This document shows positions 3,106 through 11,199 of a stretch of 21,366 nucleotides of DNA, one piece after another (position 1 is the stretch's first letter; each line of letters opens with the position of its first letter). The notes beneath the pieces were generated by a model, which saw only the letters and a list, made by a program, of their open reading frames with translations, did not search any database and had not been told where the DNA came from. Origin of the DNA: a virus (taxonomy: Duplodnaviria; Heunggongvirae; Uroviricota; Caudoviricetes); the IMG/VR virus record IMGVR_UViG_3300017992_000015, positions 1-21,366 of that record; one strand, 5' to 3'. Position numbers and translations under genes: made by a program.

Positions 3106-4299
3106 CTATTGCAATCCCACGATATTGTGTTGCCCGCCGGCAACCGCAGCCTGAGGCGTGCTGTCAACGACAGCGCCAGGCAACGGGCGCTCGCGTTTGA
3201 TGAGAAAGATTTGCAGCTCATCGTGCCCGTGAACGAACTTGATTGCGGGGTCCGTCACGTCGTAGACCATGTCGCTGCCGTCGAGATGGATGGCGATATC
3301 TTCCTCGGTGGGCATGAGGTTGATCCGGGGATAACCGTGGGTGCGCGTGTCATAGCACATCACGAGCACCTGGTTGTCCTTGACGATCTCGTGGTACCAC
3401 GCTTCGATAGCCGCGGGCGCGCCGCGGACCTCGAACGTGACCTTGTAGCTGGGCGCAGAGGGTCCAGCGGCAGCCGGTGTCTCGCCGGTAGGGCCGCACG
3501 GGCCGAACAACGACGGGGCAGGCATGGGTGCGCCTACCGGAGCCACAGGGGCTGCCGGAGCGGCCGGGGCCGGTTGCGGTGGCGCAGCGTACACAGCCTG
3601 CTGCGGCTGTGGCTGCGGGGGACCTTGCGGCACGGGCGGCGGAGACTGCGGAGGCGGCGCAGGGGCCTGCGGGACGGTTGCGGGCTCCTGGGGCTGCTTC
3701 GCAGATGGTTGATCGTTGCGGCCTGTGGCCACGCCCTGGGCGAGGTCATAACCGCTGACGATGTCGTTCACATGCTCGTTGGCTGTGGGCACTTCTTGTC
3801 CTCCTCCTTCGGTGGCCTTGGGCACGACATAGACGCCAGGCAAAGCAATCGGTGCCTCTCGAGGACGCTCACGTGCGGTCATGGCCGGGGTATCTGGAAC
3901 GTTGCTGATGGCGAACTGCTGATAGGCTCTCGCACCGGCGAAGCGCAGGTCCTCTACCGTCGAAGCGTGCCGCACACCGGCATCTTTGACGGCCTTGAGG
4001 GCTGCATCCTTCTGGATCTGCCTGGGGTCGATCACGAAGCCTTGCCCGGGGATGTCTGGATCGACATTCACCCGGGTGGCGACTTCGAAAGGATCCCATC
4101 CGATCGGTGCTCCATCCATCGTAGAACGCCTGATGACAGTGCCCTGTGCCCCCCAAACGCCGGGCGGCAGCACACTCGCCATCGATTGTTTGCTTATCGG
4201 CAGTATCTCTTCTGCCGGATTATGGTACTGCGAGGGATCCAGTTGGGAATCCATTACGGCGTTCCCGCGGTCCCAAAACGAGTCTTTTTCTAGTGGCAT
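3106..4299 (-). CDS. Hypothetical two-domain protein with a Pro/Gln/Ala-rich linker
   Basis: 397 aa, SD GGAGG/AAAGGA upstream. Globular-looking N- and C-terminal parts are separated by about 90 aa of PQA-rich sequence. Confidence 0.85.
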   Translation of the reverse strand: MPLEKDSFWDRGNAVMDSQLDPSQYHNPAEEILPISKQSMASVLPPGVWGAQGTVIRRSTMDGAPIGWDPFEVATRVNVDPDIPGQGFVIDPRQIQKDAALKAVKDAGVRHASTVEDLRFAGARAYQQFAISNVPDTPAMTARERPREAPIALPGVYVVPKATEGGGQEVPTANEHVNDIVSGYDLAQGVATGRNDQPSAKQPQEPATVPQAPAPPPQSPPPVPQGPPQPQPQQAVYAAPPQPAPAAPAAPVAPVGAPMPAPSLFGPCGPTGETPAAAGPSAPSYKVTFEVRGAPAAIEAWYHEIVKDNQVLVMCYDTRTHGYPRINLMPTEEDIAIHLDGSDMVYDVTDPAIKFVHGHDELQIFLIKRERPLPGAVVDSTPQAAVAGGQHNIVGLQ

Positions 4300-8195: not shown

Positions 8196-8301
8196 GATGA
8201 GTCTCCTTGTACTTTTGCTTGCAAGCGTCGCAAGGCTTTCCGCGGTTACACCGCGGGGGGTGTATCCCCTTGTACCTCTTGTGGTTCTTGCACTTCGTCA
8301 T
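8182..8301 (-). CDS. Small basic Cys/His peptide (39 aa), candidate Zn-binding protein
   Basis: MTKCKNHKRYKGIHPPRCNRGKPCDACKQKYKETHRGRL; SD AAGGAG 6 nt before ATG 8301 (shorter than the track ORF). Confidence 0.65.
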   Translation of the reverse strand: MTKCKNHKRYKGIHPPRCNRGKPCDACKQKYKETHRGRL

Positions 8302-8686
8302 CTTTCGCTCCTTGTGTAGCGAACGCCGGCAGCTCTTCTTGCACCAGCGCGAGTACCGTCGCGGGGTCGATGCCGTCGCCACGGTTGTCGATGGCGTGGT
8401 TCAACTCTGCGGATGATAGCATACCAAGCTGGTGGCCACGAAGCAACGCTATTGTCAGCGTCAGATCCTCGCCGCACACGTCCTTGTACAGCATCCAAAT
8501 GCGGGGGCCGTAGATCTCGAGCGTGTCGAGCGACAGCAACGGTCCCATACCGCCCAGGGCGCTGTCCGGGTCAATGTTGGCGGACTGTTGCATCAGCTCC
8601 ATACAGACGCGCAGCGCGCCGGGATTACCCTCGCCGAGCGCTTGAAAGATGTCCATCACGGAGTGATGTAATTCGATGCGAGACAT
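8246..8686 (-). CDS. Phage-type hypothetical protein (146 aa; GNPGAL...IYGPRIWMLYKDVC)
   Basis: Start moved to ATG 8686 (SD CAGGAG). The track extension to 9031 runs through the tRNA-like element and is not credible. The motif looks like a recurrent phage hypothetical family (from memory, unverified). Confidence 0.8.
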   Translation of the reverse strand: MSRIELHHSVMDIFQALGEGNPGALRVCMELMQQSANIDPDSALGGMGPLLSLDTLEIYGPRIWMLYKDVCGEDLTLTIALLRGHQLGMLSSAELNHAIDNRGDGIDPATVLALVQEELPAFATQGAKDDEVQEPQEVQGDTPPAV

Positions 8687-8715
8687 TGGGTCTCTCCTGT
8701 AGTGGTGGTAAACAC

Positions 8716-8756
8716 GAGGGCGGGCCGCGGCGTGGGGATACCGCGACCCGCCCCTC
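8716..8756 (-). promoter_or_regulatory. Strong GC-rich hairpin in the leader between the tRNA-like RNA and the gene at 8686
   Basis: GAGGGGCGGGTCGCGG-TATCCCCACG-CCGCGGCCCGCCCTC (13-15 bp), followed only by GTGTTT, so at best a weak terminator. Confidence 0.5.
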
Positions 8757-8797
8757 CTTCCCCGGGCTTGACTACACTGTAACTTCCGTCGATCCAA

Positions 8798-8903
8798 AGC
8801 ACTCGTTAGGGAGTCGAACCCCACCGCTGGGGAAGATCCGATAACTTCAGCAGCGGCCATGCGGGTTATGAGCCCGCTGACGTAACCACTACGCGACGAG
8901 CGC
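8798..8903 (-). tRNA. Non-canonical tRNA-like RNA, anticodon CAU, initiator-type anticodon arm, very long variable arm
   Basis: GCGCTCGT/ACGAGTGC acceptor (8 bp); D arm GCGT-AGTGGTT-ACGT; GCGGG-CTCATAA-CCCGC anticodon arm; 37-nt variable region; TGGGG-TTCGACT-CCCTA T arm; no CCA. Confidence 0.75.
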
Positions 8904-8927
8904 CCGGCCTCCGGGTTGGCCAGTGTG

Positions 8928-9650
8928 TCAAGACCCCAACGGCAATAGCTGAGCTGCCAAGACGAGCTCCCGGGCCACCTGGGCCTGGAGGAGCGCACTC
9001 GTGGCCAGCTCTTCGGGCGATGCCTCGGCAATGCCGAAGTAACGCATCAAGGAGAAAATATCCAGATCCTTTTGGTCAGGCGAGGGCAACAGCACATCGT
9101 ACGGGTCGTAACACCCGATCGGATTGTGCCACATGCGCACCGGTACCTGGATCTTTGTATCTTCGCTTTGATTCCGCTTCAGTACTTCGAATGCAGCGAT
9201 CCGAAGCACCTGTTTGATGTTGAATCCGAAAATCGCGGCGTCGGGCGTGCCGTCGCTGTATCGCAGATTGTCGGAGAACTGATGCGGGTATGCTTCCTTC
9301 AAGTAGCTCAGCAGCGGGACGGCAACCTTGCCACGCAGTTGGGGACCTGTGGTCTCCTGTGCGTAGACTTGGTTGCCGTTGCGATCGAGGATGATCACGC
9401 TGGTAAGCATGGCCAGGCCGGGCCGCTGGATACGGTTCTCGTATCGGCGATCCCCGGCCAACGTCGAATCAGCGTACGCCTGCGGCGGTGCAGCCGCATC
9501 ATTCTGGCGCTGCTGATTGACTTCGGCAATATGGGCATTGATGGTCGTGGCCTTCGACATCGATCGAGGCACACGGACCGGGCCCATGTAAGTGGACGCG
9601 TCACCGGCGGCACGCATGATGGCGCCGATGTAGAGTGCTGTGCCGGGCAA
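8928..9650 (-). CDS. Hypothetical protein, possibly a catalytically dead DnaQ/PolB-type 3'-5' exonuclease fold
   Basis: Likely TTG start at 9650 (GGAGG 5 nt upstream; the track uses 9662). AIFGFNIKQVL, CYDPYDVL and LDIFSLMRYFGI resemble ExoII and downstream segments but lack the catalytic acidic residues. Confidence 0.6.
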   Translation of the reverse strand: MPGTALYIGAIMRAAGDASTYMGPVRVPRSMSKATTINAHIAEVNQQRQNDAAAPPQAYADSTLAGDRRYENRIQRPGLAMLTSVIILDRNGNQVYAQETTGPQLRGKVAVPLLSYLKEAYPHQFSDNLRYSDGTPDAAIFGFNIKQVLRIAAFEVLKRNQSEDTKIQVPVRMWHNPIGCYDPYDVLLPSPDQKDLDIFSLMRYFGIAEASPEELATSALLQAQVARELVLAAQLLPLGS

Positions 9651-9689: not shown

Positions 9690-10316
9690 TCAAGCCAGCC
9701 CCTTGGCGTATCCTTCAACGCTCATGGCGCAGATGTGCATCGCGTCTGCGATGTTGTCCGTGCCGGATGATTCGTAGTTGTCGGGGTCGAGGTCAGCGCC
9801 GAAGCGCTCGTTGGCGGCTGCGATCATCGCAGGCTTGCCAGCGTTGCCTTTCCCGGTAGCGTACTTCTTGATGGTGCCGATGGCGTACCCTTGGCAGGGC
9901 ACCTCGTTCTCCTCGGCCCAGGTGCAGAGGGTGATCTTGAAACCACCCAGGAGCTCAGCGGCTGTGGCCACACGGGCCATGATCATGCCGAGCTTCTTCC
10001 CGCCGAAACCTTTAACGGTGGGGGTGTTCTTGACGTCCTCGAACCCAATAAAGCTTGGGTGCATGACGGCCATGAACTGCTTGAGCCGGATATGACGGAC
10101 GGGACCGGTGTCATACGGTCCGAGTCCGAGGTCAAGCTGGCCGGCGTACATCTGGATATCGTCCCAGACGATCGGCTTTTCGGGATCCACGTCACACCAG
10201 GCAACCCCGCAGTTGGTACCCAGGTCGAGCCCAACGATGCGGACGTAACCGGGTATGAGTCCTGCGAGTTCACTCTGAAGGATCTCCGGATCCTTGTGCT
10301 GCTTCGCTTTCGCCAT
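9690..10316 (-). CDS. ruvC: RuvC-like Holliday junction resolvase
   Basis: IVGLDLGTNCG, IGFEDV, TIKKYATGKGNAGK and DNIADAM carry the RuvC acidic residues. Confidence 0.9.
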   Translation of the reverse strand: MAKAKQHKDPEILQSELAGLIPGYVRIVGLDLGTNCGVAWCDVDPEKPIVWDDIQMYAGQLDLGLGPYDTGPVRHIRLKQFMAVMHPSFIGFEDVKNTPTVKGFGGKKLGMIMARVATAAELLGGFKITLCTWAEENEVPCQGYAIGTIKKYATGKGNAGKPAMIAAANERFGADLDPDNYESSGTDNIADAMHICAMSVEGYAKGLA

Positions 10317-11199
10317 TGACGATCACCTGCGTGTGGTCAGTGACTTCTTCAACGAGAGGGGCAACGCCCGCAAGCTTGCGGTGCTCCTCAACCAAATAGT
10401 GCAGGACGAGGCTGTCCACGCCCGCGGCGTGTGCCTCTTCCTTGCCGACGCCCGCCTTCTCAAAGATGCGGTACTTGTCATCGCAGTGGCCCTCGAGGGA
10501 CCACATGACGCCGCGCCGACGGAGTTCGCCGATGCGCCACGCCCACTGCTGCATGGTCTCGCCAGGCAGAGGCAGCGGGTCGTCGTAGTCGTCAAGCTGA
10601 CTGGCCTTCTCGACGATCCCGGAGTCGTAGACGAGCTCAGGCTCGAAGACGAACGGGATGCGCAGGAAGTTGTGGAAGTGCGCTTGGAAGAGCTCGATGT
10701 CGAACCGCCACCCGTTGTGGGCAACGACGACCTCTCGACGCTCCTCCATGTCCTCGAACATCGTGAGATATTGTTCGAGGGTGGCGATGGGGTCTTCACC
10801 CTCGTTGCGCAGCCGCTCCCACGTGTGGTGGAAGCCCTTGCCGCGCGACTGCATCGCCTGCTGAGTCTGGTACAGCTTTCGCTGGAAGTCTTCGTGGTCA
10901 ATGTCAGGGAAGTCCGGCCAGTTCAGGTAGACCTCCCGGGTTTCAATAGGCACGCCATCACGTACGATCGTGTGCCCGATAGAGCAGATGAGACTGCGTT
11001 CTACGTCCACGCCGTTCGTCTCGCAGTCCACGCAGGTGTAATTTGCGGGAAAGCCGTAACGGTCGGCGAACTCTTGAAACCATCGTTCTGACATTTTAGC
11101 AACCAACTGTAGCTGTCGGCTCAGCGCGATAACGCGGGTCATCGCACTTCGTAAGTTATTGGGATTGGCTTGGATCAGGGGTGCTCCCGTCCGCGGCAT
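10270..11199 (-). CDS. DEDDh (DnaQ-like) 3'-5' exonuclease
   Basis: ExoI VDCETNG, ExoII AHNGWRFD, ExoIII HAAGVD (H-x4-D). Confidence 0.88.
   Translation of the reverse strand: MPRTGAPLIQANPNNLRSAMTRVIALSRQLQLVAKMSERWFQEFADRYGFPANYTCVDCETNGVDVERSLICSIGHTIVRDGVPIETREVYLNWPDFPDIDHEDFQRKLYQTQQAMQSRGKGFHHTWERLRNEGEDPIATLEQYLTMFEDMEERREVVVAHNGWRFDIELFQAHFHNFLRIPFVFEPELVYDSGIVEKASQLDDYDDPLPLPGETMQQWAWRIGELRRRGVMWSLEGHCDDKYRIFEKAGVGKEEAHAAGVDSLVLHYLVEEHRKLAGVAPLVEEVTDHTQVIVNGESEAAQGSGDPSE

Follow-up and report, generated by a model that had tools for sequence, protein, structure and literature searches.

Family of tRNA-like RNAs with an Initiator-Type CAU Anticodon Arm at One Genomic Position in Related Environmental Phages

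The minus strand of a 21,366-nucleotide (nt) stretch of phage DNA (positions 1 to 21,366 of IMG/VR record IMGVR_UViG_3300017992_000015, the whole of which is called the window here) encodes a tRNA-like RNA in which an initiator-type CAU anticodon arm is combined with a long variable arm. This is very probably a real, selected structured RNA and, judged by synteny and covariation, it is one member of a small family found in related large environmental phages. We propose that it may be a non-canonical methionine, initiator-type tRNA(CAU) of the phage, an interpretation to which we assign a probability of roughly 0.45 for the full chain of transcription, processing, charging and ribosome use. The usual explanations for phage tRNA genes are codon supply or escape from tRNA-cleaving defences. 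In the present case an RNA with the shape of a tRNA has stayed at a single position in the genome while the protein next to it fell to about 45% identity. The family, which has six members so far, can be regarded as a natural experiment on the parts of an initiator tRNA that are needed for the phage's use, and it provides a compact candidate for initiation without formylation, for a decoy of tRNA type, or for bacterial mRNA processing guided by a tRNA.

Results and Discussion

Structure and detection of the RNA

The source record is a phage contig of 161.8 kb with a G+C content of 59% and a completeness of about 75%. An initial annotation, made from the letters of the window, had described a complete cloverleaf, and all of the listed details are present on the minus strand (coordinates in Table 1) with a single exception: the D stem, thought to be extendable to 5–6 base pairs (bp), comprises 4–5 bp closing a loop of 5–7 nt, and an extension to 6 bp is impossible. 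The loop CUCAUAA is indeed closed by three G:C pairs, which are read in the sequence as GCGGG/CCCGC. Within the variable region, the 33-nt hairpin consists of CCGCUG/CAGCGG, a CU/CC internal loop, GAAG/CUUC and a 9-nt loop. The unconstrained minimum-free-energy fold is a five-arm cloverleaf (−44.6 kcal/mol, z −2.7), and the hairpin folded alone gives −12.7 kcal/mol with a z of −2.95. The hairpin sequence is unique in the genome, and a repeated or mobile element was rejected on the basis of this single occurrence. Three readings of the acceptor branch are legal, namely 8/5, 7/5 with the extra A unpaired, and 8/4 with a bulge.

Comparison with bacterial tRNA(fMet) (E. coli metY/metZWV) revealed a shared CAU within CUCAUAA, three shared G:C pairs at 29–31:39–41, and a T loop of the form UUCGAnU. 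The element differs in its paired G1:C72, in U73 in place of A73, in C:G rather than A:U at 11:24, and in G3:U70, as well as in its 37-nt variable region and the extra nucleotide at the junction of T stem and acceptor. The initial annotation was therefore right in stating that this is not a normal fMet tRNA and that position 1:72 carries no C:A mismatch. No CCA is encoded, as also stated, and the same is true of the four canonical tRNAs of the phage (Gln, Glu and two CAU), which lie at 71–75 kb. Both canonical CAU tRNAs (G000:C1:73635–73708 and 74574–74648, minus strand) are mismatched at 1:72; one has C1xA72 and no GGG/CCC stem, the other has U1xU72, GGG/CCC and the loop CUCAUAU, and from the sequence either could be the initiator. 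The canonical cluster also holds a degenerate tRNA-like piece (G000:C1:74242–74312, minus strand) that scores 23.5 bits on the Sec model and has the T arm GGGGUUCGAUUCCCC, together with a lone T-arm match at about 75414–75429.

Standard finders miss the element, as had been anticipated. ARAGORN at default settings made no call for it in the window, and a relaxed threshold led to hundreds of false calls; Rfam at gathering cut-offs returned nothing in the window. When the 162-kb genome was searched, the element reached 25.1 bits with RF00005 (tRNA; E 4.2e-4, cut-off 29) and 30.8 bits with RF01852 (tRNA-Sec; E 2.5e-5, cut-off 47), matches that are beyond chance yet sub-threshold. Because ARAGORN and the default thresholds of Rfam are blind to the element, such elements are probably under-counted. 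The tRNA-Sec-like body ascribed to the RNA could not be upheld: on the Sec model, an ordinary tRNA-Glu encoded by this genome reaches 32.0 bits, above the element itself, and the Sec score is thus not specific. Moreover, bacterial tRNA(Sec) has a UCA anticodon, G73 and a 6-bp D stem with a 4-nt loop, whereas the element has CAU, U73 and a D stem of 4–5 bp.

A syntenic family with a covarying fold

Strain copies of the locus (L266–L268) differ by 2 single-nucleotide polymorphisms in 5.4 kb and carry an identical element, which means that they give no information on covariation. Searches for related loci seeded with the upstream open reading frame (ORF) and with the RuvC-like gene of the neighbourhood yielded no relatives. 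The protein of 240 amino acids (aa) encoded directly upstream of the RNA has ten homologues with 42–56% identity, and the DNA was examined for eight of them (L269, L270, L271, L272, L273, L274, L275 and L396). Five of these relatives contain the element in the same place, directly after the gene for the 240-aa protein, which is 43–54% identical in them. A tRNA-like structure with a long arm occupies the gap after the gene in L270, L272 and L274, while L271 and L396 have a compact 67-nt version that lacks the long arm. There is no intergenic gap and no element in L269 and L273, where a model search finds nothing, and the sequence of L275 stops inside the element. L270 is the same contig as L012, a match from a pattern search for CAU plus a long arm; with a pattern specific for the family, L012 was the only match among viral contigs, and 185,579 species genomes gave none.

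A covariance model built from the window sequence alone (CM R1) matches L270, L272, L271 and L396 with E values of 2e-6 to 4e-4 and L274 with an E value of 0.39, in each case within the syntenic gap, and all six members fold individually into the same arm layout. A MAFFT alignment of the homologues was structurally wrong, and a CM-guided alignment, which is biased towards the structure of the model, was used in its place. The latter comprises only five sequences (the window, L270, L272, L271 and L396); L274 was left outside and judged by eye. Standard pairs fill 96% of the cells in this alignment, compared with 40–51% when the partners are slid by 1–3 columns, and changes on both sides were found in 17 of 31 pairs; none of 500 column shuffles reached the observed values. 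The covarying pairs include six of seven in the acceptor, three of four in the D stem, and both outer pairs of the anticodon stem (27:43 and 28:42). The extra arm is of different sequence in L270, L272 and L274, and the search of related phage contigs for covariation in this arm, which had been suggested at the outset, found four of its six outer pairs changed on both sides. The elements measure 106, 99, 95, about 100 (L274) and 67 nt, and because the differences in length are no multiples of three, conservation through the overlapping reading frame is excluded.

These data bear directly on the notion of a decaying tRNA pseudogene into which a hairpin was inserted by chance. The sub-threshold scores with standard tools and the irregular junctions would fit such decay; on the other side stand the retention of a single position while the flanking protein diverged to 43–54% identity, compensatory substitutions in every helix, invariant blocks of letters, and the identity of the strain copies. 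The initial annotation had named homologues that lack the long arm or show no compensatory changes, together with the lack of a discrete RNA, as the signature of a pseudogene, and what was found instead is that four members keep a long arm with compensatory changes and that the whole fold covaries. A pseudogene is hardly credible on this evidence.

G1:C72 is invariant in all five aligned members, as are GGG:CCC at 29–31:39–41 and the loop core UCAUA, both of which are also seen by eye in L274, and the CAU anticodon is kept in six of six. The GGG/CCC core of the T stem is likewise invariant in the aligned members, where the T loop reads UUCRAnU; the T loop of L274 is deviant. Other features drift. 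The extra junction nucleotide is A in the window, G in L270 and U in L272, is ambiguous in L274 and is absent from L271 and L396, and it pairs with nucleotide 8 in the window only. Consequently the 8/5 stack did not survive as a family trait, since an eighth acceptor pair is possible in the window alone; on this comparison the pair is probably a peculiarity or an over-reading of the window sequence. The D stem is weak and variable across the relatives. The long variable arm reported earlier is present and folds as drawn but is dispensable, being 20–33 nt in length in four members and missing from two. A GAU triplet in the arm loop of the window, considered as a "decoy anticodon", was rejected because it is absent from the arms of the relatives. 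At 3:70, G:U is found in the window, L271 and L396, C:G in L272 and U:A in L270. As read from these patterns, selection has kept the initiator-type anticodon arm, G1:C72, the T arm, and the helices as such.

In L270 (2251–2356) and L274 (2233–2343), the terminal helix runs five pairs further into leader and trailer past one AxC mismatch, which gives an extended helix of 11–12 bp with the mismatch at the same relative position in both.

A possible initiator-type tRNA and its alternatives

CAU is the main identity element for methionyl-tRNA synthetase (MetRS), and three G:C pairs let an initiator tRNA occupy the 30S P site. The letters that are fixed in the family are thus the ones recognised by MetRS (CAU) and by the 30S P site together with initiation factor 3 (GGG:CCC), from which we infer action in trans via the anticodon arm. 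RNase P, the CCA-adding enzyme and T-loop enzymes recognise the structures that are fixed, which suggests excision by the tRNA machinery. In the proposed mechanism the transcript of the upstream operon would carry the RNA as its tail: nucleotide 1 follows the stop codon after only 24 nt and no sigma-70-like promoter was seen near the element, so that co-transcription with the upstream gene is likely and the simplest assumption. RNase P, 3′ trimming and CCA addition by host enzymes would then excise the RNA by way of the acceptor helix and T arm, and the excised RNA would act in trans through its invariant anticodon stem-loop. Entry into the P site without EF-Tu or accommodation in the A site would allow an eroded D/variable core and a large arm to be tolerated. 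That phage CAU tRNAs tolerate such arms is indicated by the wider class described below, in which 52 of 76 pattern matches are complete cloverleaves with an extra arm.

Several observations weigh against an initiator-type tRNA. A mismatch or weak pair at 1:72 is a determinant of formylation, and none of the acceptor marks of bacterial initiators is present (1:72 is an invariant G:C pair, N73 varies, 11:24 is C:G). N73 drifts through U, A, U, C and C in the five aligned members. Most relatives lack U8 and the 8/9 linker, and the canonical core of the L-shape is thus not conserved. G3:U70, the alanine identity pair, is present in three of the five aligned members and would compete with MetRS; two canonical CAU tRNAs, both mismatched at 1:72, are furthermore already encoded by the phage. 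Finally, the generic tRNA model finds none of the relatives at E ≤ 1, and L271 scores best on the mascRNA-menRNA model (27 bits, below its cut-off). Searches of the roughly 75%-complete genome (162 kb) for TilS, formyltransferase, a CCA-adding enzyme and T4 Rnl1 were negative, the Rnl1 search having been run without a positive control.

Since G3:U70 is the dominant identity element for alanyl-tRNA synthetase (AlaRS), the RNA could be charged by AlaRS and act as an alanine or dual Met/Ala CAU tRNA, with AUG occasionally read or started with alanine. The retention of G3:U70 in the window, L271 and L396 while 2:71 and 4:69 changed suggests that the wobble pair is kept in that sub-lineage. However, 3:70 is C:G in L272 and U:A in L270, so that G3:U70 is no family feature; N73 is U or C and not A, and no alanine-specific context was found. 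This makes alanine charging a very unlikely role. We rate even lower a tRNA-Ile2 type, in which C34 would be converted to lysidine by TilS and AUA would be read. Phage CAU tRNAs are often of this kind, as in the tRNA-Ile of phage T4, and this speaks for it in a general way; on the other hand, no TilS was found in the 162 kb, AUA is rare in the long ORFs of the phage (about 3 in every 1000 codons, or 7% of those for Ile), and the invariant GGG:CCC is a mark of initiators and not of Ile2.

The drift of U8, the D arm and N73 around a fixed anticodon stem-loop and fixed processing features of the T arm and acceptor could also reflect a tRNA mimic or decoy, which would be made and processed as a tRNA, would not translate, and would display the initiator anticodon stem-loop as a sink. 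Candidate targets are a host PIN/VapC-type nuclease that cleaves initiator tRNA, another tRNA-targeting defence, MetRS, or the 30S P site, the last in a host shut-off. The blindness of the generic tRNA model to the relatives and the possession of ordinary CAU tRNAs by the phage are both in keeping with a decoy. Phage tRNAs that counter tRNA-targeting defences are an established idea (PMC10264068). In opposition to this, no defence or toxin partner was identified, the roughly 75%-complete genome yielded no enzyme of tRNA repair or related phage function, and the invariant G1:C72 and the well-kept acceptor helix exceed the needs of a pure anticodon-arm decoy. A decoy is therefore possible but on the doubtful side. 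The broader form of this idea, a phage family of mimics that would carry the initiator stem-loop on a scaffold competent for processing and incompetent for translation, and would serve as decoys for nucleases or toxins or as P-site blockers of host initiation, seems unlikely.

A role in cis must also be considered. The mascRNA element directs 3′-end cleavage of this type for MALAT1, and the RNA could similarly recruit RNase P or RNase Z to cut the polycistronic transcript after the 240-aa gene, or could stabilise the mRNA 3′ end together with a G+C-rich hairpin that lies downstream (Table 1). Its position is consistent with this: the element always lies 24–45 nt after the same stop codon and before a hairpin or U-rich tract and the next ribosome-binding site (RBS). 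Among the structures, the acceptor helix and T arm are kept best, the helix of L270 and L274 continues into leader–trailer pairing, and the best score of L271 is on mascRNA-menRNA, below the cut-off. The invariant UCAUA loop and GGG:CCC stem would be needless for processing, yet these are the most conserved letters; in addition, three relatives with DNA are reported to do without the element, L269 and L273, which have no intergenic gap, being the two named. A cis-acting 3′-end element is accordingly a quite improbable explanation. With mascRNA (MALAT1) and the 3′ tRNA-like structure (TLS) of the turnip yellow mosaic virus (TYMV) type, the element shares an acceptor/T-arm mimic at the 3′ end of a longer transcript and a degenerate D region. 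The TYMV TLS keeps an anticodon that is read by its synthetase. Unlike the phage element, these are eukaryotic or plant-virus elements, and the likeness here is one of position and fold. We know of no bacterial or phage equivalent of such elements with a conserved initiator anticodon arm.

Comparison with other long-arm tRNAs

To return to the initiator-type tRNA, a wider class of phage CAU tRNAs with an extra arm was collected with a pattern composed of GGGCTCATAACCC, a gap of 16–29 nt, and GGTTCGA, which matched 70 IMG/VR loci. Complete initiator-type CAU cloverleaves with an extra arm were recognized in 52 of 76 sequences (the 70 loci, long-gap matches and the window element), nearly all of them in viral contigs; the window element and L118, a metagenome locus, are among the 52. 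Of these cloverleaves, about 48 are mismatched at 1:72, 34 have A73 and most have a 7/5 branch, and among the 70 loci the variable region of the extra-arm CAU tRNAs measures 12–24 nt. A complete cloverleaf was present in 8 of the first 80 pattern matches in species genomes. A literature search found no description of a phage initiator-type CAU tRNA with an extra arm.

Members of this class resemble the element in being phage-borne and in having the GGG:CCC stem and a paired arm in the variable region. They are otherwise canonical and are called by standard tools, whereas the element has G:C at 1:72 and a variable N73, and its arm is longer (33 nt) and without a 3′ spacer, next to an eroded D region and core. 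On this comparison the family shares the arm and the anticodon stem with the phage extra-arm CAU class, but departs from it in the paired 1:72, the variable N73 and the eroded core.

The structurally closest analogue of the window element outside its own family is a 97-nt phage tRNA-Met(CAU) in L020 (3009–3105 of IMGVR_UViG_3300037308_000220), which both ARAGORN and RF00005 (53 bits) call; its G1:C72 is paired, its acceptor may reach 8 bp with a linker of 1 nt, and about 25 nt make up its variable region. The locus L118 (Ga0307434_1002579, 2688–2788) encodes a 9/4 tRNA with a 6-bp D stem and a 4-nt loop that reaches 55.2 bits with Rfam tRNA-Sec against the cut-off of 47 and combines a CAU anticodon with GGG/CCC; unlike the window element, this is a true Sec-bodied CAU tRNA.

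The closest published work concerns the allo-tRNA, selC* tRNA(Cys) and tRNA(Sec) families, which have 8/4, 9/3 or 8/5 branches and G73 or U73 identity (Mukai et al. 2017, PMC5389517). They resemble the element in their long variable arm, in their occurrence in metagenomes and phages, and in being missed by standard finders; the window element further has a possible eight-pair acceptor with U73, and U73 is also a mark of selC* tRNA(Cys). The element family differs in its unconserved eighth pair and its varying discriminator, and the Sec score does not exceed that of the phage's own tRNA-Glu. As regards the 8/4 or 9/3 allo-tRNAs with G73 (Ser identity), an 8/4 reading of the element needs an unpaired A, N73 is U, and two relatives are without the arm.

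Other tRNA genes with insertions were encountered as well. Near-identical tRNA-like genes of about 97 nt occur in two different phages (L068, G006:C1:19517–19613, minus strand; L065, G018:C1:61897–61992, plus strand); acceptor, D and T arms are normal, and an anticodon arm of about 8 bp encloses a small internal hairpin (about 25 extra nt). ARAGORN makes no call for either, and the Sec model gives 21–26 bits. Soil metagenomes contributed dozens of archaeal-type initiator tRNAs (within L076–L155, for example L076, L128 and L143) with A1:U72 and AGCGGGG, in which an insert of 20–40 nt follows the anticodon arm; these inserts are presumably introns of soil archaea at a non-canonical position. For the phage studied here, an archaeal bulge–helix–bulge (BHB) intron was ruled out by its bacterial-type RBS and 1:72-mismatched tRNAs. 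Within an initiator tRNA gene of a Pseudomonadales metagenome-assembled genome (L316, contig_2609), about 31 nt are duplicated in tandem; the repeated segment covers the anticodon arm in its 3′ half, the variable loop and the greater part of the T arm.

Genomic context

Matching DNA of the same phage is present in sediment and seawater runs from eight studies; no RNA run is among those listed as carrying the locus. A BLAST search with the locus and with the whole window gave no match in 50,697 deposited phage genomes. The tRNA-like RNA is located within a run of minus-strand genes in a replication/repair module that has RuvC-like and DnaQ-like genes (Table 1). A phage attachment (attP) or integration site was rejected: no integrase was found among the ten window proteins scanned, the whole tRNA-like structure differs between phages, and it is syntenic inside the replication/repair module.

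Table 1. Coordinates of the tRNA-like RNA, its parts and its neighbours in the window.
Feature	Position	Strand	Remarks
Whole tRNA-like RNA	8798..8903	minus	nucleotide 1 at 8903, nucleotide 105 at 8799, discriminator U at 8798
Acceptor 5′ strand, GCGCUCG	8897..8903	minus	pairs with 8799..8805; G1:C72, G3:U70; U at 8896 could form an eighth pair
Acceptor 3′ strand, CGAGUGC	8799..8805	minus	from sequence and covariation
D arm	8880..8894	minus	stem GCGU/ACGU, 4 bp, extendable to 5 (GCGUA/UACGU); GG in loop
Anticodon arm, GCGGG-CUCAUAA-CCCGC	8861..8877	minus	anticodon CAU at 8870..8868
Variable region	8824..8860	minus	AUGG (8860..8857) and 33-nt hairpin (8856..8824); 37 nt in all
T arm, UGGGG-UUCGACU-CCCUA	8807..8823	minus	GGG/CCC core invariant; 3′ strand CCCUA common to window, L270, L272 and L274
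Extra nucleotide A	8806	minus	between T stem and acceptor 3′ strand; can pair with U8
G+C-rich hairpin	8714..8758	minus	40 nt downstream of the element; −38.5 kcal/mol; followed by GUGUUUA, RBS GGAGAG and ATG at 8686
Upstream 240-aa gene	8928..9650	minus	gene call in strain copies; stop 24 nt before RNA nucleotide 1; homologues mark the syntenic position
Downstream 146-aa gene	8246..8686	minus	ATG at 8686; very large uncharacterised phage family

Pfam and PHROGs searches with the neighbouring proteins gave nothing useful, and a protein atlas was likewise uninformative. A confident AlphaFold2 model of the 240-aa protein (pLDDT, the predicted local distance difference test score, 84) shows a weak likeness to DEDD 3′–5′ exonucleases (RNase T, DnaQ, ISG20), with E values of about 0.02 against the PDB and down to 9e-5 against AlphaFold clusters. 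The family alignment revealed no conserved DxE at the first strand, so that a functional link of the protein to the RNA is conjectural. A second, more typical DnaQ-like gene (10270..11199) adjoins the 240-aa gene.

The G+C-rich hairpin 3′ of the element was not called in a terminator scan because of its weak U tract; comparable hairpins are found 3′ of the element in L270 and L274. The 146-aa gene is not the downstream neighbour in the relatives and is thus placed outside the module, and a 261-aa ORF that crosses the element (8246..9031) is the same gene spuriously extended upstream. Genes of the 146-aa protein family may regularly have tRNA or tRNA-like genes as neighbours. Directly upstream of its homologues in other phages there are T-arm-bearing tRNA-like structures (L036, 3787–3904; L026, about 3900–3990; L033, about 3774) that have a canonical T arm, a small GUGG..CCAC hairpin and a terminal helix of 10–12 bp, without an anticodon-like loop, and canonical tRNAs lie at most 4 kb from a homologue in L030, L037, L038 and L042.

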